Assembly: GCA_964187785.1 (NCBI GenBank)
Contig: OZ076409.1
Location: 8,372,001-8,436,000, forward strand
Direction: 5' to 3'
Length of the DNA stretch: 64,000 nt
DNA from: Amphiscolops sp. MND2022
Lineage: Eukaryota
Shown: one piece after another, positions 11,916-44,052 of the stretch
Layout: every line of letters begins with the position of its first letter
Numbering within the stretch: position 1 is the stretch's first letter
Translations under genes and position numbers: made by a program
The notes under the pieces: model-generated
The model's database searches: none
What the model was told of the DNA's origin: nothing
Seen by the model: the letters and a program-made list of their open reading frames with translations, nothing else

Positions 11916-11918
11916 ATT

Positions 11919-11932
11919 TGGTGCGACTTGTA
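11919..11932 (+). promoter_or_regulatory. Putative primer-binding site (tRNA not assigned)
   Basis: TGGTGCGACTTG begins 3 nt after the LTR end; TGG is complementary to tRNA CCA. Confidence 0.6.
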
Positions 11933-13748: not shown

Positions 13749-13752
13749 AAAA

Positions 13753-16700
13753 ATGTCCTTAACAAAAACCTATTTACCTTTTCAAACCCCCATCATTAAA
13801 AATGCAAAAGTTGTAAAATTAGAACTAAACCCATTCCTACAAAACATTATTTCACATTATACACAACCACTCCCATTTGAAAATGAACCACACACAATTG
13901 AAACAATCCCTCTTATTAGAGAACATTTGGACACATACCTTTTTTATATTAGATACAAAGTTTTAACAATCACCGAAGAATACCCAACTTTTCAAATCTC
14001 CTTTCTTCCACAAAAACTTAATTCATCTCATATATACAGAAGAACAATAAATCCAATAAACCTTCAAGTTCCTATTAAACAAGTTTTTCATGCTTTTCTA
14101 AACAATGTAAAAGACCACAACTTAGCACAGGAAATTCCAAAATTTAGTCCAAATGCACTCGACGATCTTCAACGATACATAGACAATTTCGACGTAGAAA
14201 TTATCGAAAGATTAGTTAATGCTGAAGATAATCCCCATCATTGGTTACAAGCTGATATATTACGAATTCAAAATTTCATCTACCATTACTTCAAAGACTT
14301 AACATTAAATGACCAAACAATTCCTCAGATCAAAGTAATATCTTTATTTCTCAGAAAATACTTCAGATTTAATTATCAACTATTATGGTCACAACAAGAT
14401 CAATCTGCTTTTACAGCATTTCCAGATCATTTTACATTAGAAGAATGTTTACCATTCATCATCAGTGAACAAAATGAACATCATTACTTTCATAAACCAC
14501 ATTCAATTACAAAACAAACCTTAGATTACATACGTTTCGATCCTCTATTAATTACAGAAAATGATCTATTCGCTGACAATAGACCTTACCACTATGAACA
14601 AAATTCTCAAAATCAACAAAATTGACATTTTAACACTAACAATTCTACTGAAGATGATAACACCGATCAGGAAAATACAACCCAACAACAAAATCAACCT
14701 GAAAACTATAACGATAATGAGTTTACTACCCAAGAATCTACAATTTCAACACATAATCCATCACAAACAGGGACATCAACATCAGTACATACTCAATCCT
14801 TTAGAGTTCCCACTAGAGTTGTAAACCAAAGACAAACTACACATAGTCCTCAATCTCACTTAGCTACATCTCCAAACCGTAATATAACTTTTAACCTTCC
14901 ACATACAGATGACACACACGATGAAACCCATGATACATTCCAGGATGATATTCTAACTACATCTAGTGTTCAGAATACTTCTGTTAATGTTGCATCTCCA
15001 ACAAGAACTAATCCTGATTATACAAGATACATTACTCGATCTAGATTTGATCCTCCATCAATTCCCTCCGCCTTTCGCTCAAACAGATCGACCTCTTCCA
15101 ACAACAATTTTAATGATAATCCCCAAACTTCCAACCGATATTACGATCCGTTTAATTATAACTTTTATCCTCCATCAAATACAACTACCAATACAAATAT
15201 CAACCAACATCACTCTCAAATTAATACAACTTCAACAACACAAAACCCCTTCATACAATTATCAAATACCAATACTTCACAGAATATATATTCTCGAAAT
15301 CAAGGAACCTCGTATCCTTCCACTTCTTATTCTAATATCACACAGGATTCTCAAAGGAGACTTCATAACCCTCCACTTACACATATACCAACTGATCCTC
15401 TGTATCAAATGCATCCAAATCCAACTCCTAACCCTAATTCAAATCCATTACCACAAAATACAATCCAACATATACCTCCACCACTCACACAACAATTAGC
15501 TCCTCCACCCCAATATTTACCAATGCCACAAGATACTTTTATAAACATGTCCGCTTCAATACCAGAACCTATGAAACCTTTTGATGGTTTGGACCATTCT
15601 TACACCCCCGAAGAATATCTACAACAAGTCGAAGCAAGATTAACCTTCGCCATAGGTGAAGAGCCTCAAAATAATCCTATAAAATACAAATCTTGGCACA
15701 ACAGACGCATGGCTTACATACAATGTTCATTAACAGGAACAGCTCTCGATTGGTACACTAACCTCCATATATCATATAAACAACAATGGAATTCTTTTGT
15801 ACAATTATTCAAAAAACAATTCTCATCTCAAAAAACTGCTTACTACGCTCAAGTAGAAGCTATGTCACTCATGAAAAAGGATAATGAAACAGTTCGCCAC
15901 TTCGCCCTTAGAGTACAACAAATAGTTAAAAAGGGATGGTGTAATGAAAATGCAGCTACCATAAATCTCAAAAATTATGAAATCTTTACAAAAGGGTTAC
16001 CAAAGAAGTTAAAAAATTTTGCCCATAAATGACAAGTTAAACATGTATCAACATTACTTGAACCTTCAATACCATTTCATACACTTTTTAGACTTGTCGA
16101 TTCTGAAGATATTGTTAATGAAAAAATTATAACTAACGACTTAGCTCTAGAAATAAACAAAGTATCGCTTGAAGATGATACTAACAAAAAAGAATTTGAA
16201 CATGAAGATCAGATAATGGTTACTCAATCTGGAGACCCAAATAACAAAAGCAAACCAGCGTATAGAAAATATTGTTTCTATTGTCACAAAAATAATCATA
16301 GTATTTCAAATTGTTATCAAGAACAACGTGATGACGAATACCAGAAATACAATAACCAAAGATCACGAACTCCTCAACAATCCTTTGTACAATATTTTCG
16401 CAGTAAACCTAATAATCCTCAAGAAAATCGAAATGACAATACAAATCCTTACTCCTCAGATAATGATCGTAATAAATATAATCAAAATTACTATAATGAT
16501 AGATACAGAAACAATGATAGATATCGTAGCAATAGTAGAGAATATTCGCAAAACAACTATAGATCAAACTCTCGACAAAGATATTATAATCGATCCCGAA
16601 GTCCGTATAGATCTCGATTTGATAATTATTATCAAAGAAGAACTCCATCTAGATCTCCATATAGATCTCCATACAGAAATAACTCAAAATACAGATATAA

Positions 16701-16926
16701 TTCTCGCTCAAGATACAGATCTCGTTCTCAATCACAAGGAAACTCCTTCAAACGATATAATTATCCACATAGATCTCCATCAAGACCTAGAGATTTTAGA
16801 TCAAGATCTAGAACACCCTCAAGAAACAGACAACAAAACAGAATAAATCAAGTAGACGTTAAATCTGCAAAAGAAAATGATTGTACAAAATTTGAAATTC
16901 ACACCTGTCAAATAACAAATAGCTAA
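13753..16926 (+). pseudogene. gag: Very long gag (~1,050 codons, internal stops at 14623 and 16030)
   Basis: ORFs 13753, 15409 and 16216 share one frame, and 14626-15408 is stop-free. Capsid-like MKPFDG...LTGTALDWY...F, CCHC knuckle CFYCHKNNHSISNC, RS-rich tail. Confidence 0.85.
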
Positions 16927-19900
16927 TACAATCACTCCTTATAGTTGGTTTTATCCACTATATATTCACGCTTCTGAAACAAATGATAACATATTACCTT
17001 CAAAATAGGAAATCTTATTCCTCTTAGATACTGGAGCATCCATATCTGTTTTGAATTTACCAACATTTCATGTAATTTCCAAACAATTAAACATCAATGT
17101 TCCAACTAACCTCCAAAACAAAAGAGCCAAAACTCTTACAGTTGCAAACCAAACTGAAGTACCAATAATACATTATATTTCGATGACCTGTTTCACTGAA
17201 GTAAATCACAAAACACGATCATTCAATATCGATTTTGACGTTGCAAATATCAAATACAACATTCTTGGAACACCCTTTTTCAAAAAGCACATCCAAAATA
17301 TTGCTTTTCAACAAAATATTATGACATACATAGAACAACATCCAAAGCTTCCAACAAAAACAACATTTTCCACCTTTACAGAAAAAGATTACCCATATAC
17401 TTCTTACATTTATACTATTAAATGTAAGGAACCAATTCACTTTAAACCAAGGTCAGGAAAAACCATAGATTTCCCAATTAAAAACTATTTAAATTTACAT
17501 TTTGAACTTGAAGATAATACAAAATTCTATCCAACAAACCCATATACATATTTCTTACAAAAATTCAAAAATATCTTTCATTTCTTAGATATGATAGTCA
17601 ATGAAAAAAGCAAAGACTCATGTGCAACCATAATTCAAAACTTTACATCTTACCTAGCTACATTACCACGAGGAATTATTGGATATATAGAAATACCTAT
17701 TACTCAAACAACTCCTCCTCACTACAGAGTTAACGATGTAAATTCACTTTTTTCACTCTGTAATACATGCGTATCACCCTGATACCACAACTCCGATTCA
17801 ACAAAATTCTTATGTAGATATGAACTTATGTACTAGGGTAACACCACAATCCCTATTAGAAATTAACAAGATAGAAATCAACGACAAAACACTTCAACTT
17901 CCTATACCTTCTGTTACTGGAAACCTTCGACCCTGAGATAAAATTCGAAAAGATTTCCCTCCATTACCCTATTCTACAGAAAATCAACAATTCAAAAAAA
18001 AGTTCAATTTTGAATACTCAGATTTAACCGATACAGAAAATGTAAACCTCTGCAATATTCTGATTAATAACCAAAATTGTTACGCCAAACATAAGAACGA
18101 CGTAGGAAAGATTTCTACTCCCTTTCGAATTAGAATAAAAGATAATTGTAAACTTCACACACAAAGACCTTCTAAAGTACCTATTCACTATAGAGATAGA
18201 CTAAATAAACTTTTATTAGAACTTGAAAAATACAACATCATAAAACAAATTGGTTCAACAACAGATGAAAAACATACTATTGGAACAACATTTTTCAACC
18301 CTTTAATTATTATCCCAAAAGGAGACGCAATAAAAGTTGTCTTAGACGCAAGACATCTAAACTCAAACACTAACCAAGAACTTGAATCTTGGCCTATTGA
18401 ACCTTTAGCTCCTCAATTAGCTAGAGCCAATAAAAAATACAAATCAACTACTGATCTAATGTATGCATATGCTCATACACCATTAGACGAAGAAACAATT
18501 AAACTTACAGGATTTTCATCCGGTGACAAATTATACGCCTTTATCCGTGGATCTTATGGATTAAAAGGACTTCCAAACTTTTTTTACAAAACAAATGTCA
18601 ACTTTCTTTAGATCGCTTATAGACAAACGTTCTGCGTTAGTTTATATCGATGATATTTTATTACTCGCAAACGAAAAACAAGAAATATTTGAACTTATAA
18701 AAGAATTACATACAATAGCATCTCGAGAAAATCTCAAACCTGCACCTGAAAAATCATTCTACATGTTACTCAAAGTAAAATTCCTTGGACATGAAATTGG
18801 TAACAACACAATTAAACCAATTCCATCCAAAATTGAAGCTATTAAAAGAATTCCATCACCAAAAGAAAAGAAAGATGTTATGCAAATTCTTGGCCGTGTT
18901 AACTTTTATTCAAAATTTATTGAAAAGCTTCATATAAACCTTAAACCATTGTATACATTACTACATGATGATGTTAAATTTCAATGGACACCTGAATTAG
19001 AAAAAATATTTCAAAATGTTAAAAATACAATGACAGCAAACACTGAATTAACAATACCCAACACCACGCATCCATTTTTCATAACAGTAGATGCTTCGTT
19101 AGTAGGTTTAGGCGCAGTCTTATTCCAAATGAACAAAGAAAACAAGATGAAAGTAATCTCTTATAACTCCAGAATTCTTAACACACAAGAACAAAAACTT
19201 TCAACTTTAGATAGAGAACTTCTTGCAATAGTTTACGCACTGCAAATATATGAATTTTTGATCATTGGATCTCCTCATCCTGTATACCTCTTCACAGATC
19301 ACAAGCCTTTACTACATTGTTTCGCAAAGAAAGGAAATCTTAGTCCTAGATTCTATAGAGCACAAATGCAACTAACCAAATTCTCCAAACTAAAAATCAT
19401 TCATACCCCTGGAAAAAATTTAACTGTAGCAGATACGCTTTCACGAACCTTTACAAAAGAACAGTTACAAGTACACCAATTACGACACAAACAATTACCA
19501 CCTCAAATAGATTTCTCTATCATGAAAGATAATCAACTCAAACCAGTACATTATTTAGTAAAACATGAAGAAATAAAATATAATCAAAAGAATGATTGTC
19601 ATCCTATCCTTGCTGACTACAGAGACGACCAATTCTCTATCCGTATAAATAACAAAGGAGAAGAAATACACATAAAGCCTTTAGATTCCTTCTCTTTTCA
19701 ATCTATTGTTCCAATCGAATCAAAATATAAAAAGCCTACAAAAAACCAAGCAAAATCTCTTTTACAACAATCGACAATTCTTAATGATACTGACATTCTT
19801 AGTGATGAAGATGAAATAACTCAATCAAATAATATCCAACAACAAAACTCAGACATAGTAAAAGAACACACCCTTGCTATACAATATCCTACCAAATCCG

Positions 19901-21798
19901 ACTATTGTAAACAACAAGTTCCATTTTTTGATCCATCCTTTTTCAAATACAAAAAATATTTTAATTACTTCTTCCTACCAGAAGGTACACAAATAACCAT
20001 TGAAACAATAAAAGCTCAACAAAACCAAGATACTGTTTTACAAAACGTTTACCAATGGATACTTAATAATGAAAGACCCTTACAAATAGACAAATAGACC
20101 CAACAATTGCAGCTAACTCTTTCTTATTATTATATTACAAAATCTTCAACCAGTTATATATTAATCATGATACAAAAATTATCTACATAGATTATCCTAA
20201 TCTTCACGATTCCAACCCGAATCAAAGTGACAAAATATGTCTACCAATTAAACTTTTCCACGCAGCTTTTAACAAATTTCATGCTCATGGACATTCAGAA
20301 ATAAAAATATCCATCAAAGCTTTCAACCAATTTTACTTCATACCGTACTTGAATAAATGGATGTCAATATTCATCCATGATTGCATTGAATGCCAACAAA
20401 ATAAACATATTAACCAAAAATTACAAACTGCATCTGTACAAACCTTCTCAGAAAATGCTTCATATTTTAATTACCGAATATCAATGGATACAAAAGGACC
20501 TATAAACCCACCATCAAATCAAAATTCATACATTCATGTTATAGTAGACGCTTTTAGTCACTTTGTAGTAACAGTACCTATAAAACAAAAGAATGCTCAA
20601 ATTGCTGTTAACTCATTACTACATCATTGGATAACAAAATTTGGACCTCCTGTATATCTAGTTACCGACTGTGGAACAGAATACATTAATTCAGAATTTG
20701 CAAATCTTTGTACCACAATGGGAATTAGACTTTCAACAAGAACTCCTTATGCACCATGGACAAATGGTTTAGTTGAAAATCAAAACAGAAATCTTGGAAC
20801 TCATCTCAGACTTTTCTTACATATCACTCCAGAAAAATTGGTCAACTCAAGTTCATATGTATGCTTATGCACATAATTCACAACCACTTTCTGAAGTAAA
20901 CTTATCTCCATATGAAATAGTATTCCATACTATACCCAGAATTCCAATCAACTTTGAACTCAATCTCCAAAGAAATACATATAGAAATTGTACTTCTCAA
21001 TATTGTCAAGAATTACCACTTCATACACACTATGACAAATCAAATCTAAACCCTTTCTTTCATACAATTTTATCTAAACCAATTCCACAATGGATCTTAA
21101 CTACTGAAACTGCTATGATACAGATATACCATACGGTATATGAAAACACAAAAAGAAAGATTAATTCCTATGCTTATTTTAACAAAACATATCACAATCC
21201 AAGACCCTTAGATATTGGTACATTTGTACTAAAAAGAAATTTTCTCCATGTTCATTTTTCCGATAAATTAAAACCTCTCAGAATTGGCCCATTCAAAATT
21301 ATTAACAAAATCTCCGACATAACATATGAAATTGTTAATCAAGATGGTTATACATCGCACATACATAGAAATCATTTAATTCCTTATCATCCAAAAGAAC
21401 CAGTTATTTTTCCTTTCCTACAACAATATAATCCTCATTTATTTAATGACTGTCATTCAAATATAAACGATCAAATAATTAACTCTGATGAAGACAAATT
21501 TACTGACGAAGAACAATTTCCTTCCACAACATCTAATAAAGAAACGGATATACCATTCACGATTGACTTACAACCAGAATCATTTAGCCAATATTCTTCA
21601 TTTCCATATAAACAAAAAGAACAAATTTCTCAAAATACCTACCTGGATAACCAATCAGATATTCATGACTATGTTAATTTTATTAATCCCCGAAGACACT
21701 CCTATAATAGATACAATTTCCGCCCACAACCAAGAAAAGACTACCGACTTTTCCTTGGTGAAAACGATATAATTTCACTTTCTCAAAAAACCTGCTGA
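16922..21798 (+). pseudogene. pol: pol: protease, RT, RNase H, integrase (several frameshifts and stops)
   Basis: LLDTGAS (DTG 17027-17035); YIDD 18643-18654; RNase H TVDAS / ELLA / TDHKPL; integrase H..GH...CIEC, MDTKGP, VTD, GLVE; GPF motif. Confidence 0.95.
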
Positions 21799-22186
21799 AA
21801 TACGGAATACAGAAAAAAGCACATAAAGAAAATTTGAAAGAAAAGCAAAAGTTTGAAGCTTACTGTGAAACTGAACAAAAAATATTTCACAAGTGATAAT
21901 AAACGAAAGAAATCGATATGAAACTATATATATTTTATAAATTGAAACAAACTACCTTAACACAAAGATTTCAAAATTGATAGACATATTCACTTGCCAT
22001 CATCAACCACAAATAACTCTTCTTCTAGTTCAACACATTCACACCAAAGATTACCTAAATATACAGCATATTTAAACTCAGATACAGACATACTGGATTC
22101 CTAATCCTCAAATCCCAGTCCATCCGCTCCATATACTCCTGATAGAGTACCAACAACACCCACCAATTCTGAAAATCATATTTCAG

Positions 22187-24417
22187 ACCAAGATCCTAAC
22201 ATTTTAAACTTGATGGTATCTCATTATGATTGTGCAAAACAAAACAACTTAGAACCATGTAAACAAGCACCCTCAGATATACAACACACAAAAACCCAAG
22301 CAACAGTTTATGTTAGAGCAAAAGCTAAAAGAATAAAAGCCTTTAAATGCGAAGCATATATAAAGACTGAGAAAGTCTGGTGTTCACAAACATTCACATC
22401 TAGTAGACGATATGATCGTTTACAATGGGGACAAAACACATTAGAACTTCCAAAAATATTGGACCCTATTGAATGCAAAAATATGATCAGATATTTAAAC
22501 GCGACTGATAGTGAAGAACTAAACAACTACAAAATACAAAGTTCTTTCTCATTGTTCGACGATAGTAATTATCAAAACACAATTGAACGAATTCAGACAC
22601 CATTTAGAGTAAAAAAATTAAATACATGGCATATTGGAACCTTCGTATTTGATGAAAATTATCCTGACTGGATAGTTAATGTTACACAAAATACATACTC
22701 CAGATGTCGATCAGACCGAGAACATTTAATTACCCGACAAAGTTGGAAACTTAGAATTGTTAACACCGCAATAGATTATGACGATAAAAACAATCAATTA
22801 ATACATGACGGACACATATTACCATGTTATCATTCAGACGGATTTTGTAAATCAACGACCAAAACTCCATATACATTAACATGGTTTGATGAAAAATTTT
22901 GCCTCATATTTCAACTTCAAGAATTCATTGGTAGAATGACACGAATCAAAGATAGATATTGGATAGAAACCGATACCTTCATTGAAACTTCAAACATCAC
23001 ATAAAAACTTCAAACCGAAGGAATACAAGGAACAAGATATCCTAATGTAAAAACACCACAATCAAAAGTAAGCAATCCAAGCCTTTCTCGATTTGAAATA
23101 TACCCAATTGCACAAACCTTCTGTGGAAAACCTGAACCATTATTTTCAACACAATACGATGACATCTTTGTTACATACTTAGATGGTTTTGATATGAACA
23201 CAGGATTACCAAAACCACACTCAATAATTGACCAAACAATTAGTGGAAATATAAAATATGATGATTCAAACAAAAGGTATATATTCCCTGCATTGAATAT
23301 ATCAAACAATTTCGCCACTTTAGATTATGATGCCCATATTAATACAAAGATTGATTTCACAATAAATCATGTATTTAAATCCATGACAGTACAAGAACTA
23401 AACACTCTTCATACAATATGTGAACTGGAAAGAACTCAACTATTAACGATCTTAGCTATGTCAGTTAAAAATCCTCAATTAGCCGGTTTTCTTTTAACTG
23501 GAAATCGTAGTAACTTTCTCTAAGTTGAAGGATCTACAGCATGGCTGTATGATTGCCCTCATTTTATATCACCACTATACAAGGCAGACAAATGCTTTGA
23601 TAGAATTCCTATACACTACAGAGAAACGATAATGTATGTTGACCCAATAACAAGACAAACTTTTAACTATGCAACACCAATTGAATGTGGAAATAACCCA
23701 CAAAATGTAATAGAATTAGATCCAGATTCTAACGACGGAGATTTTTATGTGTTAACACCAGAACCACTTCAACGAGAAGCACCACAAATGTTTGAACCTA
23801 CCCAAATTAAAACAACAATCACTCCTAATACATTTACCGCCCAAGATGCCGGTATATACTCAAATGCAGAATTAGATCAATTCTGGAATAGAGTACTATT
23901 TGCTAAACATTCTGACACAACTCTCCAATTACTTGGAAAATCATTAAGCTATGATTTCATCTCAATGCATAATGATAAACACTCATACTCAGGACATAAT
24001 CCCTATAATCATTTAAGGATTGGAGTACATGACCACTTGTTAAACCTTTTACCACTTTTTAACCCTGACTGGTTCAGTCAAGCATTCATTAATTTCTTTA
24101 GATATCCATGTTATGTTTTAACTCAATGTGGAATTTATTTTTCAACATTTCTTTTCATTAGAGAAGTTTTAACATTTTTACTCAAATTCTACAGAACAAT
24201 TAGCATAAAATATAATCTCCAAAGCAACATTTCCATTTTGAGTTCAATAGCTCATGGATTTTTTAATATAGTTACATCGGAAATGGTAACTGATTTAAAC
24301 AATACAGTAAAACGAAAACGGATATATACTAAACACAAAATTACAACAAGTGAAAATGATAATATCCTATTGCCGGAAAAAGAATTAAACAATAAACGAA
24401 GACACTCTGATACTTAG
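22187..24417 (+). pseudogene. env: env-like glycoprotein, class III fusion protein-like (chuvirus G / herpes gB type); in-frame stops at 23002 and 23521
   Basis: ORFs 22210, 23194 and 23632 share one frame. Motifs HYDC..PC..FKC..WC..IEC, then CELERTQL...NPQLAG...WLYDC...KCFDRIPI...YVDPITR...IEC. N-glycosylation sequons; C-terminal TM segment CGIYFSTFLFIREVLTFLL. Confidence 0.8.
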
Positions 24418-24931
24418 TCCCCTTATTTACCTCCTAAATATTCCAGTAAGAATTCAACATTTCAATCACCGCAAAAGACACACCCAACTAATGTAAACGA
24501 TATTAATTCTCAGGACTATGACCCAATAATGTCAAATGTAATAGCTGTACCGGAAAGTCCTGCTAAAGTCTTTATAAAATTCAATCCCTCCTAGCTGAAA
24601 AGCAATAACTTAAAAAACAAATTAACCTCAGAAAAAGTTCAAAAAATTATCAACTAAATTCTTCTCAGTAATAACTTTCATTCAAACCCTAATTCTCACT
24701 CGGACCGGTCTCTCCTTTTCAACTCAACAACAAATTCACTTGCCCACCACAACTCAACTCTCAACCAGAAGACTTCAACTGGATTTTCAGTCCATCTAAA
24801 AGACCGAAATCACAGAAGTTTCTATTCCTGGAATAGATGCCACTGTGATTGTTGATGTTTTCAACCCATCATTGACTCAGTATTCCCATATTGTAAGTAC
24901 AATTTAAACTTTAATTTTAACAAACAATTTA

Positions 24932-26290
24932 ATGGATAGAAAAGACATAACAAAATTTTTCCTTATTATTCGAAATAATATAATCAAACGTTATAATCAT
25001 TATTTTATCGTTATAATTGATGTAGTTAACTCTAATCCCTCTGAATTGCTTGCATCCCCTTTGAATATAACTATTCAAAAAAATGTTAACGAAGATAATA
25101 ACTCTTCTTCCAACTCTCAAGACCCCATAGCAACTAATCCTATTGAACAAGTAGATCATGTTAACGCAAGATCTCAAAAAAGAAAGTACCCAGATATAAC
25201 TGCAGATAAACCTTTTATGGAATCTGGCGCTTGCCCTCCTTTCATAAAACCAATTAAACAAGATGAAGATAGAGATTGTGAATTAGTTCCTATTCTCTCG
25301 TCAAAACACTTCACCTTTCAATCTCAGTTAACTTCGTTATACATGATTCCAACAAAATATAAATTCATCATCAGAGAATTTAAAAATGATTATCATACAT
25401 CAATTGCTTCAAAATTGATTACCCCATATGATTGGTGGTTAAACAATAAAGTGAAAACTTTCTCATTCCAATACAACTTCCTCAGACCATCTCCATATGA
25501 TCTTCGAACCAAAGAAAATGATGCAAATTTTTTGCCATACCAAATCAAAAAGGCTCACCACATGACTTATCAAAAGTTTCTTCAATATAAAGAGCCCGAT
25601 AATTATATATTCTTCATCTCCAAATATACATCGCCATTCACTTTCAACTCAGAATGTTTAATAGATCATACCAAAACAAAAGGAAAACTTAGAAATTATG
25701 ACCCGCTGAAACAAAGTTTTCTCTTCCTTCCAAAAGATAACCCAAAAAGACCAATCATTGTACCACAAGAATACCTCATTCTGAACGACGATTCGTTACT
25801 ACAAGAAGATATACCTCAACATATATCTGATCCTCTTCCTTCACTTCAACATATAGCCTCTCAACCTTTGGGAGACTGTGAAAAATCTTATTTTCACGCA
25901 ATGACCAAAAAGGGATATTCGAATAATGAATTAATTTTCATTATTTCTCATCTGCTTTCACTTCTTACAAATGGAAATCACAAAGAATATAAAAAGGCAA
26001 AACAAGAATCGCCTAAGAAAACCAAAAATGATATTCCTCAACCACAAAGTTTTCGCCCAACAGATGAATTACAGAAATATACAGAAATCCTGAATATCAT
26101 AAAACCGTACCATCATCCGAACCGAGATATTCTTATAACAATCGCTGAAATCGTAAATACCCTTGAACAAGCTCGAAGCATAATACAAAATATCGTATTT
26201 GATACGACAAGAATTAGCCAATCAGCTTTGTGCATTCGCACATCTTTAGACGAATTCAACTACACTATTGAAAAAATGCATCGATCTTAA
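24932..26290 (+). CDS. Uninterrupted 452-aa accessory ORF of unknown function
   Basis: ATG-initiated, stop-free, same strand and A/C-rich codon bias as gag/pol; no motif recognised. Confidence 0.7.
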   Translation: MDRKDITKFFLIIRNNIIKRYNHYFIVIIDVVNSNPSELLASPLNITIQKNVNEDNNSSSNSQDPIATNPIEQVDHVNARSQKRKYPDITADKPFMESGACPPFIKPIKQDEDRDCELVPILSSKHFTFQSQLTSLYMIPTKYKFIIREFKNDYHTSIASKLITPYDWWLNNKVKTFSFQYNFLRPSPYDLRTKENDANFLPYQIKKAHHMTYQKFLQYKEPDNYIFFISKYTSPFTFNSECLIDHTKTKGKLRNYDPLKQSFLFLPKDNPKRPIIVPQEYLILNDDSLLQEDIPQHISDPLPSLQHIASQPLGDCEKSYFHAMTKKGYSNNELIFIISHLLSLLTNGNHKEYKKAKQESPKKTKNDIPQPQSFRPTDELQKYTEILNIIKPYHHPNRDILITIAEIVNTLEQARSIIQNIVFDTTRISQSALCIRTSLDEFNYTIEKMHRS

Positions 26291-26635
26291 TTGGTAATTA
26301 TGGGATAATCACTTTAAAATTGTTTACACTTATTTCTTAATCTCTTAACAACCTATCAAAATTAATTGAGTCTATACGTATATGCCTGCTATGCACGATT
26401 ATAATACATGCTTGATGTTAAAATACACTTTTAAAATAAAATAACACAAAAAATTTCAATCACGACATAAAAATTTTCAACAAAATTCCTCAATTGCTCC
26501 TCCTTTTAATGGACCGATTTCAACAAATAAGTACTTATATGAAAGATATTTAAATACCCTTCAAAAGACTTCCAAAATACAACAACCTAATTCTTAAAAT
26601 TAAAAAGTTATAATATCACAAAGTTCAATAAAAAA

Positions 26636-27289
26636 ATGTCAACTACGAAATTCTATTTTCAAAGGAACTTTATTGTAAACAAACTAATCTATTTTAGGTG
26701 AATATCGTCACAATTGCTTCTGCAGCATTCCTTCCTCCTCTCAGGTCACCCATTCAAGAAGAATTCCAAAGTATCTTCTACAACTTTCAACGAAATTTTC
26801 CCATTCTTCAATATGACAACTATTCATTCTGGCGACATAGACTGCCCGATAGCTCCTTTTCTTTCAATCTCTTCAGCTCGATTGCGATCTTTGATCCTGA
26901 AAAAGCATTTAACGACATTAAATGCGCAGCTTAGAACAGACAAAAAGGCAGACCCACATCTTACAAGGATGATATTGCTTAATATGTTCCAAATATTCCA
27001 AATAACAAGAATAAATTTCGACCAATATCTCCATATTCATAAACCTCCTGACACTTATTCAACCCAACGAGACGCCACTACCCAAACAGAACATACTACC
27101 GTCAAGCCCAAACGTTTAGTACGAAATCTATCCAATAGAATGCGTTCTGAAATGGAAAAACAACGTCTAAATTCTTATTGGCCTTCAGATGATAACGATG
27201 ATACTGACGAAGAACTTCAAAAAGACCCTCCAGAAGCACTTATAGATGATAATTACCCGCACAAAACATATACTTACGTTTCTTTCTAA
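26636..27289 (+). pseudogene. Second accessory ORF (~217 codons, one internal TGA at 26699)
   Basis: ATG 26636 is in frame with ORF 26714..27289; acidic C-terminus. Confidence 0.5.
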
Positions 27290-27840
27290 TATCAACAGAC
27301 GCCATCAACAGCACCCGTCCACTCCCATCTTCGAATCCCACATCTTCAACGATTGATCGTCGCAGATCAGCACCCATCTTCAACTTCATCGCCGCCCAAC
27401 AGTGCCCATCTTCATTCATTTGCTGACCCTTCTTCATCCATCTTCCAATCTTCAATCGTCACCCATCCAATTCTCAGCCGAAGATGATCGATAATTAATA
27501 ATAAAGAAAACTCAAAGAAAAACATTGTGCATGATAACATTTCGAAAAGTTTCAAACTCATCTAATATTTAGAGAATTCAAAACTCTTACCGAAAATATA
27601 CACTATGTAGTTAATATTTCAAATTTCATCCCCACCCACATTTATTTGCCCAAAAATCCTTTATTCACACCCGTACCGATATTTATTTGCTTTATTTTTA
27701 AAGAATATTTAGTAATAATTATTATTTTTCGGTGCTATCCTATCCAAAAAATTCACAAATATTATCAACAAATCTTTCCAAATTTCAACAAAACCAGCTC
27801 AAAAGTAGATCAAGCACATTGTTCAAATCAAATTCGAATA

Positions 27841-28140
27841 ATGACAAACCCAAATTCTCGACGTTTTCAACATTTGTTACATAACAAACCCGCCAAAGTT
27901 AATCACAACCTGAAATCTTTTCAGACAAATTTCACGCTCGATGGAAAAATTTTCTCTTCTCAACGATATTATTTCAATGACTCTTTGACCTTTAACTCGT
28001 ATGATGTTTGCTCACGTTTGTTCAATGCGAAGTTTTTTCAAAAACTTCAACAGAAGCATAAAATTGAGCATCTACCAGTTCAAAAACAAGCCGACGAAAG
28101 CATAGTGAAAAAGAACACTTTGACGCTTTTTGAACTGTAG
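27841..28140 (+). CDS. Third small accessory ORF (~99 aa)
   Basis: First ATG in ORF 27646..28140 (MTNPNSRRFQ...), shortly before the 3' LTR. Confidence 0.35.
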   Translation: MTNPNSRRFQHLLHNKPAKVNHNLKSFQTNFTLDGKIFSSQRYYFNDSLTFNSYDVCSRLFNAKFFQKLQQKHKIEHLPVQKQADESIVKKNTLTLFEL

Positions 28141-28352
28141 TCGCACCTACGAGGTGTCAATCAAAATTTTGACAATTCGAGGTACACCAATGAGTCGAAC
28201 TTACACCACTCTTAACGAGACTTATGCCAATCATCCATCTAATGAAAAATGTTAACTAGCTGAAACGCTAAGAACATTTAAACAAAAATATTTCTTCATT
28301 TCAATTAATGATGCTACTTTAAAATTTTATTTTATTTAAAAACCGGGATGGA

Positions 28353-28621
28353 TGTACTGACCTACATTAATAACCAATAGTATTTAGATGTTTATTGAAT
28401 GTTCTAGAATGTACATTTATTTGTTATTGAATGATTGTAAATCTCTACTCCCTCAGAGAGAGAAAAATAATAATCAGTATTCAGTTGACTTCCTTTTTGT
28501 TCTACTTCTAACACCTCGAACTAGTTGTAATAAAGTAAGCTAGCTAGCCTGTCTCCCAGCCGCTTTTAGTAGTTGTGTATAAGACCAACCAAAGAAGTAA
28601 CCAACCATTAAAAGCAGCACA
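28353..28621 (+). repeat. 3' LTR of the giant element
   Basis: Direct repeat of 11647-11915, preceded by an imperfect purine tract aaaaaccgggatgga. Confidence 0.95.
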
Positions 28622-29243
28622 CTTTCATGCTCGATGAGACTACTGGCGTTAGTGATTTCAGGAGTTTCTCTGAAAAGTGGACCGATCAGTGTGAGGTCTT
28701 TGTCTCGAGAAAAAAAGGTCACTGTAATAAGCATCCTGTATTCTCGGCTCTGTGAGGTCTTCTAACTGCGTCATTTTAATGGCTTTTTATCTTTAGCATC
28801 TTTATATGCCTCTGCAGTAGTCTTGATAGATATATACAAAATTTGATCTCACAACGACTATATGAAAACCTGGCCATTACGTTCGTCCTCAACGATTTCG
28901 TATGTGTCTGTTTTCATTTTTCCTATGTTCATTGCGCGTTTTGAATGCTCTACAAATCATCAAAGTTTCGATCACAGAATTTTTGGCCAACCTATTGATC
29001 TTGCTTTGAAAAAAAATGATGTTTCATGAATAATTTCCTGTCAAAGTCGAAGGTCCTTGAGTTGTCGGAAAAAGTTAGTTGCGCCTATGAGTGCCTATGA
29101 TTTCAGGGAAAAATGCCCGACTACAGCAGTGACCTTTTTTTCTTGTTTTTCTTCAGACTACAATCCTCACACTGATCGGTCCACTTTTTAGAAACAATCC
29201 TGAAACAACCTAAGGCCAAGAAAAACTTAGTCCAAAGGGGCCC

Positions 29244-30994
29244 TGTCGCAGGCTGCCGCCTGTGATGGCACATTGATAACAACAACGGCGACCAACCAAG
29301 GAACAGTACCCGGAACTTTGCCTACATTTTGAGCAAGTACGCTTTGAACTTTGAAAACTCACAATTAATAATAGTACGTATTTTCAAACCGTTACATTTT
29401 TCAATACGTTGCAGTGTATAATAGTCTGTTAATAATACGATTTGGAATTAGCCAAATCAGTTCGTTGATATAAATTGGTGAGAAGCGAAATTGAATTGAT
29501 GCAGTAGCAAACAATAAGCAAGTTAATCGCGAGAAGGAAACGTGTTCGAGTGCGGAAACGTCCATTCTCGGTGACGTAACTTGCTGTGCATTTGTCAACC
29601 AATCATATAGCTTCCTTTGTTCTATGAGTGCTTTTATTTTATAATGGCCGCATAAGGCCTTTTGACTTGATGGAGCTTATGTTCTTTAGCACTTCGGTCA
29701 AATGGCGGGTTTTGGCCAATTCATGCGTTATAGTATTTTGTTGATTAATTAAGCTGGTTTTTACTCGGAGCTAGTTAATTCATGATTATAAGCTAAGTAG
29801 AAGCGTTTGTAATGTTATGATGCTCAAATGACCCCGACCTTAATATAATGGACAATTACGGCCATTTTACCGTGACCCTTTAATGTGCTGTTTATTTCAT
29901 GACGTTGGGCCCATTCCTGCCTCGACATGGAAATGTATCCATGCACATATTTGAGCTGTATTAAAATCATACATGTAACAATACATTCCATTCTCGGTGT
30001 AACCAGCAGTAAACTTGTGTCGGCACGTGCCTTCACTTCACTCCGATGTAAAGACTGCAAGCGGAGGTATTTGTTGACGCTTTGATATAGTTGCCCTAGT
30101 CGGTAATTTGTTTGATGCTGCTGTTTTGATCAAATGATTTTTAGATGCCAATCCTTAAATGTCCCCAATAATTGCAAGTGTCGGGACATTTTCCCTAAGA
30201 AGTAGTAAATCATATGATTCCGTTTTTCTTAACTAGTCATGCAAAAACGTGATTGTCATTCCCCAAACAGTATAAATAGTACTACCCTGTTGGGGAATTC
30301 ATTAATTCGATTGACCCTGTACTAGTAAAGATACTTAATTACTCAATACAGATATTCTGTCAGCTTTCCGGTTTAGATAATTAAAATATTCAACCCGGTT
30401 TTGTCTTGATGCCTACAACCAGAAAACAAAAGAAGGCAAGAAAGTCGAGAGGACTTGAAATGCTATCTGATATCGAGAACTTAGACATCATGATAGGTGA
30501 GAACCACTTTAGTACGAGGGAAAGGGAAGGCAGTTTAAATAGTAACTTGCCTAGGTGATCTAGAAGCTTCGCAAGCAATGAATCTGAAAATGAGGACGGG
30601 AACATGTATAGAAATCAGAGAAATATTAATTCAAGGACAAATAGCGATTGTGACCGCAATTCAGTTACAGGCAATTCTAGTGCTGAGATAAATAGGTTGT
30701 CAAGTGAACTAAATTCCCGCATTTCACGATAAATGGACGAAATGATGAATTCCGTGAGTGTTCAGATACAGAGGGCCATAAGTGACGCAATAAGTACTCA
30801 GGTGCTTCCTCAAATCCAAAACGTTATTATGGCCGGTTCGGGACACGGGACCAAGAAAGGATGGGCCGTTCCGTCCGAGAGACCGGAACCAATTTCCGAA
30901 GTTCAGCGAAATCTAAACGCAAAAAGCAACTTGAGAAATGAACAAGATGATAATCAGTTAAATAATGATTTTCCTGAGCTAAATGTTCATGACA
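29244..30994 (+). mobile_element. Solo LTR (1751 bp) of a gypsy family related to the element at 58993
   Basis: TGTC...GACA termini; perfect 5-bp TSD GGCCC (29239-29243 / 30995-30999); 5' end tgtcgcaggctgccgcctg nearly identical to that at 58993. Confidence 0.85.
30409..30994 (+). pseudogene. Gag N-terminus encoded inside the solo LTR (stops at 30556 and 30730)
   Basis: MPTTRKQKKARKSRGLEMLSDIENLDIMIG...MDEMMNSVSVQIQRAISDAIS is homologous to the ORF at 60194. Confidence 0.85.
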
Positions 30995-31288
30995 GGCCCC
31001 TTTCATTTTTTACTTTCTCAAGGAAAGTTACAAAGCCGGACGTCCCTAAAGGGTCCCCCCTTGGATTTTTTTCGGTACTATGCGGCGTTTTCGAAAGAAA
31101 AAAATTAAAAAAATTTCAAGTGTTTCAACAAAAATTTTTTTGACTTCAGACGGTCTCGTCTTGTTCAATCCGGTCAAAGTGACAATTTCGTGCCAGATGC
31201 CAAAATCAGCACCGAATGCCCAAATCTTTCAAATGCTCCTTCCTTTCGTTTTTAACTTAATTGGAATTCAAGGTAATTGAGGGTTCAC

Positions 31289-35745: not shown

Positions 35746-36229
35746 TTTTTAGTCGGCGCTTTTATAAATAAAAGAGCCCGACTATTACAGTCACTCGTTT
35801 TTTTCTTTTTTTTTTATTTAAGACAGACTCGAAGCGACGAACGTTAACGTTCAATTAAAGGAAACTAAATACCAGACAAACGCATGTAAATTATTGCAAA
35901 GGATCCCCTTAGGTTTTTTACTTTTCAAACGTTACCTACAAGCCCGGACGGGACTAAAGGGTCCCCCCTTTCAATTTTTTTTGGCACTGTGCAACTTTTT
36001 TTCGAAATTTTTTTAATGTCCCAAGGGGTCCCCCCTTTGAGTTTTTTGTTATTTTGCTACAGAATGCGTGTTTATAAATCAAAAAGGGCCCCCTTTTACA
36101 TTTTTCGGCACTGTGCGACATTTTCCGAAAGAAAAATTTTTCAAAAATTTCATGTTTTTTCCCCAAAAAAATGTTTTGCGCTTTTTGAGCCTTAGATATA
36201 GCGCCGACTTGAGACGTTCCCGTCTTGTT
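35746..36229 (+). mobile_element. HINE copy
   Basis: ttttt-agtcggcgct...agcgccgact-tg-agacgttcccgtct-tgtt; close inverted relative of 53660-54147. Confidence 0.75.
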
Positions 36230-37237: not shown

Positions 37238-37754
37238 TGTTGGCGCATGACATCACAATGATCGCGCAGTAATTATTAATCCACTTAGCACAGTGTATCA
37301 GTCTTTGCTTTTGAACTGGCCTGCGCGAGTTCGAATCTGCGCCAGTGCTCTTTTTTGTTCCTTTAATCCTCTGACTTAATATTGGCCTCAATATCGATCA
37401 ATCATTTTGGTTGACATTATTAATCTTGCTCATGTTATGTATTATATTAACAACCCATTGCTCACTATTGTAAACGCATATGTAAACAACCCGTTATGGA
37501 TCTTTTTGTTGCCTTGAACTGTAAGTGTGCCATTATTTATTCAACAACCTGTTATTGACCTGTCATCTAACTCTCACTTCTTGAGATCAATTTCATTCAT
37601 TCATACTATCAATAAACATTCTCAAACATAGATCTCTTGTCTTGAGTCAAGACCCAAATCACAACAGTTTGAACTCTATCTTTGAGTTCCTTCAATCCTT
37701 TTAGTTTGAACTCTTTCTTGAGTTCCCTCGTTCTAGCTTGAGAGCTAGAAAACA
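37238..37754 (+). repeat. BEL 5' LTR
   Basis: tgttggcgc...aaaaca; about 3 substitutions plus a short terminal difference versus the 3' LTR. Confidence 0.9.
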
Positions 37755-37755
37755 T

Positions 37756-37773
37756 TGCTGACCTCGACGTGAT
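37756..37773 (+). promoter_or_regulatory. PBS, tRNA-Trp type
   Basis: tgctgacctcgacgtgat matches TGGTGACCCCGACGTGAT (complement of the metazoan tRNA-Trp 3' end, from memory) at 16/18. Confidence 0.75.
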
Positions 37774-40700
37774 GTCAACAGCAGATGGATCAGGAGGTTC
37801 AGACGGCTCTAGTGGTGACATGAAGTTGCCTCAGCTCAAACGATCAAGAGGGGCTCATCGCGGCGTCTTCACAAGACGGACAGCAGCAATCCGGCAAGCT
37901 GGTGGACCGCTCGAGGATGTTCAAGCCACATTGGAGTTCCTGATTGATCGTCGCAAGATGCTGACAGAGTTGGATTCGCAGATCCAACAACTCATTGATG
38001 ACGACGATGAACTAGTAGCCGATGTGGAGGAAGCGGCTGACGTGTTCATGGCAGCCGAAAGGGCTGTGAAGTGGTGTCAGGGCAAGATAAAGGAGATGCA
38101 GCCTCCAAGCATAAGCGGCGCGGCGGCTCCATCAAGTGGCAGTCTGACGACCAAGCTCCCCAAGCTGACCCTTCCTTCATTCAGCGGTGAATACACACAG
38201 TGGGTCTCTTTCTGGGACCAACTCACAACTCTGGTTGACAGCAAGCGTGACATGACCAACGTTGAGAAGCTATCCTACCTCAAGTTGTCACTGAAGGGTG
38301 ATGCAGCTCAGATAGTTTCATCCCAGTTGGTCACTGATGCAAACTACGACATCGCGAAGCGAAAGCTGGAGGAGCGCTACAGCAACAAGCGTTCAATCGT
38401 GAAGGCGCACTTAGCAGCAATCCATGCCCTACCAGCCGTCAAGAAGGAGTCGAGTGTTGAGCTGCGCAAACTATTGGAGTCGACGAACGAACATGTGCAA
38501 GCACTAGAAGCATTGATGTTGCCTGTCAATCATTGGGATGCAATATTGGTGTACTGGCTGTTGGAGAAACTGGATGCCGAGTCGAGGAAGCAATTTGAAT
38601 TAGCGCATCCCGGCACAGATGTGTTAACTTTCAAAGATTTAACTACATTCATGGACAGACGAAGTCGTGCATTGGAATCCAGTGGTGATCAGCCTGAGGT
38701 TTCTACCCCCAAGACGACACCCAAGAAGGTGCATCAAGAAGCTTACTCCTCAACTGTTGAGCACTCAGCGAGTTGTCAGATGAAAGAATGCAGTGGGTCA
38801 CACTCAATCTCTCAGTGTGATCGCTACAAGCAGCTGGGCACAAGTGAGAGAAAGACAGTGGTGAGGAAGCTCAAACTGTGCATGAACTGTCTGGGGCGGC
38901 ATTTCGTGGCTGATTGTCCATCCATGTTCAGCTGCCGCACTTGCAACGGGAGGCATCACACATCGCTACACTTTGATCGTGCAGTCGAGCAGCAAAGTGG
39001 TGTGACAAGTGGTGCAACGTTCAGTGGTCCATCTGTGCTTCTCTCAACAGCAATGGTTGGCATAGACGACACAGCTGGAAAAACATTGATGTTCCGAGCC
39101 TTGCTGGACTCTGGGTGTCAAACATCCTTCCTCGCAGCAGACGCTGCATCAAAACTCAATCTTGCACATTCAACAGTAGACGTGAAGATCTCTGGGATTG
39201 GTGGACGGCAACAAGCAGCCAAGGAGTCTGTCAGTCTCCTAGTGGGTCCACAAAAGTTGCCTGTTACAGCACTAGTGCTGAGCTCAATCGCAGGTAATAT
39301 ACCTTCTCAATCAATTAACTTAAAACAATTAAAGTCAATGAAAAGTGTAGCACTAGCAGACAAAAACTTCCATCAACCTGGTCCCGTTCAATTGCTGTTG
39401 GGCGCGGATGTGTACGATGATCTCTTTCTGGACGAGAGGAAGAAGCATCATGGTCTTCACTATCGCAAGTCTATCTTTGGCTGGGTGGTCACTGGAGTGT
39501 TGTCCCAAGTGCGTGCCTACCAATGTCGAACCTTTCAAGTTGCAGTGGAACTGGACCTTACTCGCTTCTGGGAAGTTCAAGAGATTCCTCGAGTGAAGCC
39601 GATGTCTCAAGAAAATCGTCAATGTGAGGAACATTACGATACCACGACCTATGTGGCAGATGACGGCCGCATCACAGTTCGTCTCCCTTTCAAGTCTGAG
39701 GCACGTCCCTCAAACAACTTTCACACAGCAAAGCAGAGATTGTTCGCTTTGGAGCGAAAACTCAAGGATCACAGTGATGTGAAGCAGCAGTACCATGACT
39801 TCATCAAGGAGTTTGTAGACATGGGTCACTTGGAAGAAGCTCCTCAGATTTTAGGCTTGTGTTACTACTTACCCCATCACTGTGTTTTCAAGGATAGCAC
39901 AACGACCAAGCTCCGTGGCGTGTTCGATGCCAGCAGCAAATCCCCGAATGGCAACTCGCTGAACGATTGCCTATTGCTTGGACCCCGCTTGCAGGACGAA
40001 GTATTTGATATTCTCATTCGCTTTCGCCTACACCAATATGCCTTGTCGGCAGATGTAGCAAAGATGTATCGACAAGTGGGTTTAGACAAATCAGACCGTG
40101 ACTTCCATCGAATTCTGTGGCGTGACTATGTGACAGATGAGATCCGAGAACTGCGTTTGACCCGTGTGACGTACGGTGTTGCCAGCTCCTCCTACCATTC
40201 AACCCCAGCACTTCAAGAGAGTGACAAAAATCATGGACCCAATCCGAACACAGTAAAAGTGATTCTCAACGACTTCTGGGTTGATGATTTACTGAGTGGG
40301 GCTGATACACTAGAGGAAGCATGCGTGCTTCAAGACGATCTGATTGAAACCCTCAACAAGAACTGTCTCCCACTACGCAAGTGGAGCAGCAACGAACCCC
40401 AACTCGTCACTCGCCTTTCGCAAGACCTTCACGAAGCTGGCAAGGCTTACGAAATCAGCAATAAAACCCATCAAATCAAAACACTGGGACTGACGTGGCA
40501 TCCTCTAGAGGATCACTTTGTGTACGCAAGTTGTGGTGAGTATATTTCAATCATTACAAAACGAACCTTACTCAGTGATGTTTCAAAGCAATTTGATCCA
40601 ATTGGCCTCATAGCCCCAGTTCTCGTAGTAGCCAAGGTCATCATTCAGTCTTGCTGGAAGTTGGATCTCGAATGGAACGATGCAGTTCCAGATGATGTGT

Positions 40701-42823
40701 CACGGGCATACACAAACTGGAAAGATGACATGAGCTCACTATCACAACTCAAGATACCTCGGAAGGTGCTGCCAACCCACTTGTACGACGAAGCATCCTT
40801 GCAAGTCTTCTGTGATGCCTCGGAAAAAGCATACGGTGCCTGTGTTTATCTGGTGTCAGTCAAAGATGATATCGTCTCCTCAACCCTCATCTCCTCCAAA
40901 TGCAAGGTGGCTCCGATCAAACCCTCAACTCTCCGTCGACTCGAGCTCTTGGCAGTTCACACGGGTGGGCAAACTTGCAACAGCAGTCAAGGCGGCACTA
41001 TCAAAATCAAAGCACGCATTTAACATTTCTGTGTTGTACTCAGACTCAACAATCGCCCTCTCATGGATCAAGGCAGACCCAACTCGATGGCACACATTTG
41101 TGTCAAATCGAGTGTCCCAAATTCAGTCAAGGCTCCAAACAACTGAATTCATTCACGTACCCTCAGAGGAAAACCCAGCCGATCTGTGATCACGTGGATT
41201 ACTAGCAACACAGTTGGTGGCTCAACAAACGTTCTGGTTTCAAGGGCCATCGTGGTTGAGATCATCAATTCTTGACCAACCTCAAACTCTCCTCACAAAG
41301 GAGGAAGCCCGCCAAGAAGTCAAAACATTGACAGTGCTAACTTCGCCCAGTAATTCGTTAGTAGACTTGGACAATTTCAACTCACTAGTGAAGTTGTTAA
41401 GAACACTGTGCATTTGCAAAGTAGCGTTTAAGAAAGATCTCAAGACGATCTTTGGCCGGGAGGAAATGGCTCTCGCCTTGTATGCGGTGGTCAAAGCAGA
41501 TCAGATGGTACACTTTGAAGCCGAGTTCAAAGCCTTCTCAAATGGTGAGTCGATCAACCGGAAGAACTCAATTGCACCCCTTTACCCATTCAAGGACAAC
41601 GGCATCATCAGGGTCGGCGACAGACTGGCCCACGGGTACTCAATGACTGACGATCAGCGGTTTCCTTTACTGGTGTCACAACGAAGCAAACTGGCTACAC
41701 TTGCAATCAACGATGCCCACAAACGAACTCTTCATGGTGGTCCCACAGCAACAGTGGCAGAAATGAGACGTCAAATTTGGGTCACTCAGGCTATGAAGAA
41801 GGCGTCAGCTTGCATCAAGAAGTGTGTTACGTGCTTCCGATTGAACTCAGGTCCAACGCAGCAGCTTATGGGTGACTTGCCTTCGAGTCGCATCGAGGTT
41901 CCGAACATGCTTTCTCTTGTGTGGGCCTCGACTTCGCAGGACCTTTAACATTTAAAAATGGAACTGAATGTGTCAACGGTTACGTAGCTGTGTTTATATG
42001 TTTTGCTTCAAAGGCAGTTCATCTAGAGGCAGTATCATCATTGACGTCAGATGCGATGGTGGCAGCCCTAAGACGATTCATTGCAAGACGAGGCATCCCC
42101 AGTCAAATTGTGTCCGACAACGCAACCAACTTCGTGGGTGCAAGGCGTGACCTCAACGAATTGGAAAAAGTGGTTCGGTCAGGGGCACAATTATACAGCA
42201 GCATTGAATGGCTCTTCATTCCTCCTCGCTCACCCAACTTCGGCGGACTATGGGAAGCAGCGGTGAAGTCGATGCGCAGAGTCATGGGCAATTCCATTCT
42301 CACTTACGAGGAGATGACAACCATTCAATGCCAAATAGAACAAATCTTGAACAATCGTCCCTTGATGGCTCTCACAAACAACCCGGATGACATCTTTGCA
42401 CTAACCCCGTCAACGCTAGTCAATGGCAGCCGATTGGATGCTATCCCACAGCCCTGTTTGCAGACGATGGATGCCCGCGGGCATCCAGCAAAACGATTTC
42501 GCGCTCTTCAACAGCTACTCTCTCAATTCTGGAAGCGATGGGCTTCTGAGTATGTAGCGTCACTTCAGCCGCGAGGCAAATGGCGACAAGAGCGTGCAAA
42601 CCTCTCAATTGATGACGTAGTGCTGATCACAGACAATGGCATTCCACCACTACAGTGGAGTATTGGTCGAGTGATGCAATTGAAGCTTGGTCATGGTGGC
42701 CTAGCTCGCGTGGCATTGGTGAGAACATCGCGCGGTGAATTCACAAGACCTGTCAGCAAGCTGAGACGTCTACCAATTAAGGACAATGACCTCCACAAGG
42801 AAACCATTGAATGCACACAATGA
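37772..42823 (+). pseudogene. BEL/Pao gag-pol polyprotein (frameshifts ~40965 and ~41915, stop 41187)
   Basis: KLPKLTLPSFSG; three Cys/His knuckles; RALLDSG; RT FWVDD; RNase H FCDAS / RLEL / SDS / ENPAD; integrase LDFAGP, SDNATNF, GGLWE. Confidence 0.95.
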
Positions 42824-43374
42824 GTAGCAGCATGAATGACAATGAAACTGCGTGCTGTGGCTTAGTGGCAAACGTTAAAGCAACAGTTAGACCATTAGAT
42901 AACCGTCAGGTCGGATGTTCGAGCCCTGCTCACGCCCACACTCCTACCTCACCTCTGGTGAGTAGGTTCCCAATGTCCTATGGGAACTTTGCTCAGATCT
43001 GGATTCCTTCCTCACGGGGGGGATGAAGGGGGGGGCGAGGGAGGAGGTTTAGTGTGTAAAGAGAAGAATAAAAGAAGCCAGCCACTATTTCCAAATTTTT
43101 CTGCAGCTGCACACACCCAACTCAATTACTCGAAGTATACCCAATCCCTTTATGGACGATGATGGTGCAGTGGTGATTTCAATATTCCCTCATCAGAAGT
43201 TCTGGAGTTCGAATCCCCGAAACACAAAGTTTATTTTGTCTTCCTTAAACTCAAACTCATGACATTTACTATTTGTATTATTATCGAGTGGTAGCTATTC
43301 ATATTCTTTTAAATTGTATTAGCACGAGTGCTAATCATATATTAAATGAAGCTGATACTTCATGGCCGGCGGGA

Positions 43375-43894
43375 TGTTGGCGCATGACATCACAATGATC
43401 GCGCAGTAATTATTAATCCACTTAGCACAGTGTATCAGTCTTTGCTTTTGAACTGGCCTGCGCGAGTTCGAATCTGCGCCAGTGCTCTTTTTTGTTCCTT
43501 TAATCCTCTGACTTAATATTGGCCTCAATATCGATCAATCATTTTGGTTGACATTATTAATCTTGCTCATGTTATGTATTATATTAACAACCCATTGCTC
43601 ACTATTGTAAACGCATATGTAAACAACCCGTTATGAATCTTTTTGTTGCCTTGAACTGTAAGTGTGCCATTATTTATTCAATAACCTGTTATTGACCTGT
43701 CATCTAACTCTCACTTCTTGAGATCAATTTCAATCATTCATACTATCAATAAACATTCTCAAACATAGATCTCTTGTCTTGAGTCAAGACCCAAATCACA
43801 ACAGTTTGAACTCTATCTTTGAGTTCCTTCAATCCTTTTAGTTTGAACTCTTTCTTGAGTTCCCTCGTTCTAGCTTGAGAGCTACCCCAAAACA
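43375..43894 (+). repeat. BEL 3' LTR
   Basis: Direct repeat of 37238-37754. Confidence 0.9.
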
Positions 43895-44052
43895 GTTGCT
43901 GTTATCCGATGGTATAGCAAACTATCCCATGAGACAGAGGTACCCTACGGATCGGTACAGTGAGGGATTCTGCTCTGATCCAATAGTTGGTGGATACCGT
44001 TTTGTGAGAAGCATGGGTATTTTTTTAATACAAAGTTTTGTCACTTTGGTAT

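Follow-up and report, generated by a model that had tools for sequence, protein, structure and literature searches.

The window analysed here (64,000 nucleotides of contig OZ076409.1 of Amphiscolops sp. MND2022; all coordinates are window positions on the forward strand) holds sequences that very probably belong to a clade of Gypsy-like LTR retrotransposons in which Gag starts 550-590 nt inside the LTR, and in which the ORFs of solo LTRs are by-products. The Gag-in-LTR architecture itself is well supported and has a qualitative precedent in Ty1. It was read from two units: a solo LTR (29244-30994, subfamily B) and the 5' LTR of a related element (58993-60743, subfamily A).

The solo LTR (1751 bp, TGT...ACA) starts with TGTCG, ends with TGACA and is flanked on either side by GGCCC (29239-29243 and 30995-30999), in agreement with the TSD-bounded TG...CA unit proposed in the preliminary description. 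The TSD alone was rejected as sufficient proof of a solo LTR, because 52 of the 26,131 TG..CA pairs spaced 1.5-2 kb apart within the window carry one (0.2%). When the unit and one GGCCC were removed, the flanks aligned continuously, over the junction, to four further stretches of the host repeat in the window (68-92% identity). This contiguous empty site identifies 29244-30994 as one clean insertion: it is a true solo LTR, interrupting an otherwise continuous host repeat. The unit thus combines TG...CA ends, a short TSD and an uninterrupted empty site, and its 3' end is shared with LTRs of other copies that are followed by a primer-binding site (PBS), as read at the protein level in 12 of 120 homologues. 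No AATAAA was found in the solo LTR. The interrupted repeat belongs to a dispersed, non-coding family in inverted arrangement (4825-5320, 35746-36229, 52554-54594, 58653-58975 and 28644-31140); the solo LTR sits within the copy at 28644-31140, and 18 bp separate another copy from the element at 58993.

The last 586 nt of the solo LTR (30409-30994) encode the N-terminus of Gag, as had been proposed: 195 codons plus the terminal A, in a frame that opens with the ATG at 30409 and is homologous to the ORF at 60194. The same proposal had treated this ORF as open and overlooked that codons 50 (30556-30558) and 108 (30730-30732) are in-frame stops. It had also let the frame run to 31143; a 136-codon stretch (30733-31143) does enter the flank, but only that stretch is open. 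Its portion beyond the LTR (30995-31143) is a chance tail, in which the Gag frame continues through host repeat of the flank as far as the first stop.

The related element follows a presumed left TSD, ATGTC (58988-58992), the right copy of which would fall outside the window. Its 5' LTR (58993-60743) begins with TGTCG and ends ...TTACA; the first 183 codons of Gag and the terminal A lie within it, starting at the ATG at 60194. After 60743 the sequence continues TGGTGACAGGAGC, read in frame as M-V-T-G-A, so the ORF does start at 60194 and pass through both the LTR end and the PBS, as first described. The Met codon straddles the junction, its A being the last base of the LTR and its TG the first two bases of the PBS. 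The PBS (60744-60755) is translated in frame and is probably of the tRNA-Leu type; 10 of its 12 bases agree with either of two tRNA-Leu 3' ends among reference 12-mers from supplement 1 of PMC13524379. The gag gene (60194-61879), disrupted by two frame changes, near 60955 and at 61440-61470, encodes a capsid-like region and two CCHC knuckles. The capsid-like region (60958-61449) of this Gypsy-like Gag matches DUF1759 (E 1e-6), as does the BEL/Pao Gag at 37772. The pol gene (61909-64000) runs off the window after a protease (pol residues 197-291), a dUTPase-like domain (329-411) and the start of the reverse transcriptase (RT, from residue 602). The dUTPase-like domain, at 62890-63140 between protease and RT, matches PF00692 (E 7e-5). 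An A-AAA-AAC heptamer lies in phase just upstream of the gag stop (61869-61911) and the -1 frame is open into pol, a sequence context in which pol is probably made by -1 ribosomal frameshifting at the heptamer; folding analysis found no strong structure downstream of this site.

At E<1e-3, local DNA similarity between the two units was found only over the first 35 bp and in two blocks of the ORF (~64%), and the units were therefore assigned to different subfamilies. Their equal length of 1751 bp was accordingly regarded as coincidence and rejected as evidence; the ATG lies at offsets 1166 and 1202 within the respective LTRs. The left tip (29244-29267 and 58993-59016) is the sole well-conserved non-coding stretch between the subfamilies and folds into a 9-10-bp hairpin in both (z -2.3 and -3.0); it is possibly a signal acting beside the polypurine tract or for integration. 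Two further motifs are candidate promoter elements. A CCAAT-box-like 16-mer at 29590-29605 is identical at 15 of 16 positions to 59395-59410 (E 0.25, weak on its own). A TATA-like TATAAATA at 30271-30278 precedes the ATG of the solo LTR by 138 nt, and the related element has a TATA-like GATAAATA at a similar distance before its own ATG.

Other copies were read through predicted proteins in a public collection, at the protein level only; the homologues with a listed source were ENA entries. If the LTR ends ...ACA and its last A opens a codon, LTR-end copies should diverge at a fixed residue, preceded by Y, H, N or D and followed by a residue whose codon begins with A. For subfamily B (best 120 of 1,037 matches), 102 proteins diverged right after codon 195, 12 continued VHD-(M/I)VTG into the Gag capsid and 6 ended earlier; the next residue was in the A-first set in 100 of 101 cases, against 40 of 95 one position later. 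For subfamily A (best 120 of 872 matches), 68 proteins read through and 52 diverged after codon 183, although a closer look at these 52 reclassified two as divergent read-throughs and one as ending early. Here the next residue fell in the A-first set in 51 of 52 cases and in 21 of 49 one position later (background 0.42). In 215 of 219 proteins the PBS peptide was preceded by Y, H or D, as a terminal ACA demands. Post-LTR tails were short (medians of 12 and 21.5 aa in the two subfamilies) and mutually unrelated, with 0 matches among 56 and among 34 tails of at least 12 aa. The sharp common end-point, the A-first residue and the unrelated tails together fix the LTR ends at 30994 and 60743.

Longer homologues (best 120 of 404) were mostly 560 or 562 aa long, with MVTG at residues 182-184 in 117 of 120 and two CCHC knuckles in 100 of 120. 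One protein (P0241) was identical to the window ORF over 254 residues. A profile search with the LTR-borne part matched 1,276 clusters at 50% identity; subfamilies that are 30-50% identical over the LTR part keep the same junction, and in over 150 proteins, drawn from several subfamilies, homology stops at one common base and the tails beyond it are unrelated. The viral, prokaryote-genome and JGI metagenome collections yielded no related locus. A pattern scan with the LTR tip returned 44 mostly GC-rich loci, none of which encodes a relative, and these were discarded as chance matches.

As a proxy for the two LTRs of one insertion, 27 pairs of long and short proteins were picked by eye from source contigs of equal size. 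In 13 of the 27 pairs, no read-through protein among 208 was closer than the partner, which in 16 stood within the top 6, at 92.7-100% identity; in the other 11 it was not close. Close long/short pairs are expected of the 5' and 3' LTRs of a single insertion. None of 623 proteins (at most 15 listed members per cluster) continues N-V, as ATGTC would give for the 3' LTR of the element at 58993. Taken at the level of sequence, the LTR boundary almost certainly falls inside the Gag ORF, as first proposed, and read-through copies pass the PBS (MVTG) into Gags of 560-570 aa. The accompanying proposal that 3' and solo LTRs carry an open-ended ORF able to fuse to flanking DNA is likewise sustained in its structural part, by the divergence of 102 of 120 proteins into unrelated tails.

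The LTR-borne part consists of a basic tip (7 K/R in residues 1-16), an acidic motif, a helix of 64 residues (74-137) and a disordered linker; the basic start and the helical segment noted earlier were both recovered. The helix was modelled with pLDDT 95-99 over residues 81-130. Across 109 full-length Gags, identity was 85% in the tip, 83% in the helix, 56% and 73% in the linkers and 97% in the capsid region. Three copies of residues 70-140 were modelled as a bundle with a score of 0.63 (best of three controls, 0.00); 90% or more of the contacts recurred between runs, and the partner pLDDT did not fall below 76. In calibration, 21 of 30 solved pairs attained the score mark, as did 0 of 23 single chains (17 of 29 and 0 of 30 for eukaryotes); the calibration was made with two copies where the job used three, and amphipathic helices may pass it by their likeness to solved coiled coils. 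From these models, the LTR-borne part is probably an oligomerising, coiled-coil N-terminal domain of Gag. It had no Pfam match above the cut-off and no usable match in the Atlas, and a weak match to Tox-MPTase5 (E 0.006, below the cut-off) was taken as noise. Foldseek returned no match in the PDB for the LTR part, a result of little information for a model made up of one long helix and disorder.

Selection on the LTR-borne ORF was assessed by comparing private changes (present in one copy, mostly arising after insertion) with shared changes (in at least four copies, mostly inherited through transposition). The test set held 75 LTR-end and 11 read-through sequences for subfamily B, and 63 and 133 for subfamily A; sequences lacking the first ATG or with an LTR part of aberrant length were dropped. 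Few of the shared variants fall in the conserved core (13 in the core against 94 in the linkers for B; 55 against 149 for A). The private changes of LTR-end copies show no such avoidance (98 against 147 in B; 52 against 55 in A), and their core share (0.40 and 0.49) is close to the share of core columns (0.43 and 0.49); the difference between private and shared changes gave Fisher p values of 1e-7 and 2e-4, with the proviso that repeated changes in the linkers can hide private ones. Between LTR-end and read-through copies, private changes did not differ (Fisher p 0.39 and 0.62) in this test, which used amino acids from cluster representatives and top matches with open frames and averages over copies, so that a few selected copies, or a passing dose effect of young ones, would be invisible. 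Because shared changes spare the core and private ones do not, the module is constrained in active lineages, and LTR-end copies look neutral, decaying as expected in the absence of selection.

The preliminary description had gone further and called solo LTRs potential genes, a suggestion that finds no support: the copy in the window has two stops and the private changes of the bulk of copies look neutral. At the protein level, LTR-end copies with an open frame make up 102 of the best 120 proteins of subfamily B. Short broken members are common: those under 130 aa account for 4, 3 and 5 of the 15 listed in clusters 1, 3 and 5.

Two readings give the LTR-end ORFs a function. In the first, the LTR itself would be a copy-number control: each insertion, and each solo LTR that remains once an element is lost, would contribute a promoter and an oligomerising N-terminal Gag module with a random tail. 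Young copies would jointly poison particle assembly in proportion to the number of LTRs, and the random-tail fusions would form a library of proto-genes of which the host has kept a few. This is unlikely. The second, which is quite unlikely, accepts the same architecture and has 3' and solo ORFs produce a truncated, oligomerising Gag without capsid and nucleocapsid, which would assemble together with full-length Gag and restrict transposition according to LTR copy number, in the manner of Ty1 p22 and Drt2. The LTR end does fall just after a self-contained module whose helix models as a homotrimer, many LTR-end copies keep an open frame, as counted above, and a dose effect of young copies would require no long-term selection on single ones. 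Truncated Gags do restrict Ty1 (excerpt of PMC13709905), and a truncated Gag from the element family itself could restrict it here. The Ty1 factors p22/p18 and Drt2 are, however, the capsid C-terminal domain made from an internal transcript (excerpts of PMC13709905 and PMC7055915), a domain absent from the LTR-borne part, which is the N-terminal third of Gag. DRT2 is under purifying selection (excerpts of PMC7055915 and PMC5408680), whereas no purifying selection on the truncated ORF after insertion was detected here in the bulk amino-acid test: private changes of LTR-end copies are neither depleted in the core nor unlike those of read-through copies. The two stops of the solo LTR and the frequency of broken members weigh against the restriction reading as well.

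The preferred reading, in which the LTR-borne ORFs of 3' and solo copies are by-products, would operate as follows. Transcription would start in the LTR upstream of the ATG, either at the TATA-like site ~140 nt before it or from the shared CCAAT-like box 350-420 nt into the LTR. Since the ORF must be transcribed from within the LTR, it would lie in R/U5, and on the standard LTR cycle minus-strand strong-stop DNA would measure at least ~600 nt. Translation continues beyond the LTR, across the PBS and on through capsid and nucleocapsid, so that about one third of the resulting 560-570-aa Gag is LTR-encoded. Reverse transcription would copy the ORF segment into both LTRs. Recombination between LTRs is an established mechanism that leaves solo LTRs, and it would account for copies such as 29244-30994. 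The LTR-borne part would be a working N-terminal module of Gag, kept by selection through the 5' copy, and the 3' and solo copies would enter random flanking DNA, meet a stop codon there within 12-22 residues (median) and undergo neutral decay.

In Ty1, GAG starts inside the 5' LTR with an overlap of about 14 codons, and the PBS is translated. The elements described here share the Gag start within the 5' LTR and the coding PBS; they differ in placing 183-195 codons, about a third of Gag with the whole helical module, in a 1.75-kb LTR, an overlap more than ten times longer. The Ty1 LTR measures 334 bp (excerpt of PMC5911963), and a GAG-POL helper of Ty1 with 'silent substitutions in PBS' (excerpt of PMC6844567) fits a coding PBS. 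The PR-IN-RT order of Ty1/Copia was not seen at 58993: protease is followed by the dUTPase-like domain and RT with no integrase between them, so the element is not Copia.

The absence of an integrase between protease and RT at 58993 agrees with Ty3/Gypsy, as do the LTR-PBS-gag-pol layout, the CCHC knuckles, the protease before RT, the 5-bp TSD, the tRNA-Leu-type PBS and the likely -1 frameshift. Gag of Ty3/Gypsy elements normally starts downstream of the PBS; here, in contrast, it starts inside the LTR, and the capsid-like region matches DUF1759. That match recalls BEL/Pao, which is marked by a Peptidase_A17 region and a triple knuckle. Two CCHC knuckles are present here, and no Peptidase_A17 was found in the part of pol inside the window, its expected region lying outside. 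The partial RT (63380-64000) gave foamy virus RT as the best match among solved structures (E 1e-7; Ty3, E 2e-3), too little to place the element, and its Atlas matches were eukaryotic PR-RT protein clusters. Odin retrotransposons, or lokiretroviruses, have a dual RNase H and an RT placed next to retroviruses (excerpt of PMC9040795); the RNase H region of the element at 58993 falls outside the window.

The retroviral LTR ORFs (MMTV sag, HIV nef and foamy virus bel/bet) are also coding sequence within an LTR, but they occupy U3, with expression from the 3' LTR and a stop before the LTR is over. The ORF described here, in contrast, is the first part of Gag; the copy in the 5' LTR is the one used, and in 3' and solo copies the frame stays open-ended. 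The rice Retrosat2/RIRE3 ORF0 elements have long LTRs, many solo LTRs and a separate ORF0 upstream of gag-pol (excerpt of PMC3485330); here the extra coding part is fused to Gag and lies inside the LTR, where the excerpted text of PMC3485330 does not place ORF0. In the literature outside Repbase and subscription journals, no description of a Gag-in-LTR overlap of this length was found, and an earlier one may exist. An excerpt of PMC12440569 on Troyka held nothing of relevance.

In tyrosine-recombinase or Penelope-like elements, a terminal repeat can overlap the first ORF. An element of this kind, with a terminal repeat that includes the start of its first ORF and without the status of an integrase-type LTR element, is very improbable here: the integrase region does fall outside the window, but the TG...CA ends, the 5-bp TSD, the tRNA PBS directly after the repeat, the aspartic protease before RT and the CCHC Gag all speak for an LTR retrotransposon. 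Least probable of all, to the point of being nearly dismissed, is the refuting case named in the preliminary description, in which an internal deletion, cut near a PBS-like motif, left a short LTR with leader and part of gag at 29244-30994, since, even with the full subfamily B element known here from proteins only and the 3' LTR of the relative lying outside the window, it is opposed by the end base common to more than 150 proteins of several subfamilies, the ACA end beside a TSD with a clean empty site, the PBS that follows that base in read-through copies and the near-identical long/short protein pairs from equal-sized contigs.

Gag-in-LTR elements of this type would move the design limit of the LTR, with R/U5 accommodating a third of Gag and, within that third, a probable oligomerisation helix. 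One junction would carry triple coding: the integrase end, the Met codon and the PBS. Solo LTRs can seed many open-ended ORFs, as the number of clusters matching the LTR-borne part suggests, and such ORFs are liable to be annotated as orphan genes; pipelines that expect Gag to start beyond the LTR would set the boundary wrongly. These elements are suited to asking whether Gag stubs are dose-dependent restriction factors or raw material for new genes, and in a first test most appear neutral.

Several other elements were recorded in the window, which has the look of AT-rich animal DNA dense in repeats. A ~17-kb LTR element (11647-28622) has short LTRs (~270 bp), a 1.8-kb leader, gag (Retrotrans_gag/Ty3_capsid) and pol. 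Its env-like region matches PF24664, Monjiviricetes_fusion (E 2.5e-6, just under the cut-off), and extra ORFs before gag (13753) and after env (24932) had no Pfam match; the whole resembles a Gypsy element with env and is disrupted at several points. A complete BEL/Pao element (37238-43901; LTRs of ~525 bp, 98.5% identical) is adjoined by a complete Gypsy-like element (44053-50037; 217-bp LTRs, 95.9% identical, TSD GGTAT). Degenerate tandem arrays with periods of ~170-185 bp and local duplications occupy 7250-9960.
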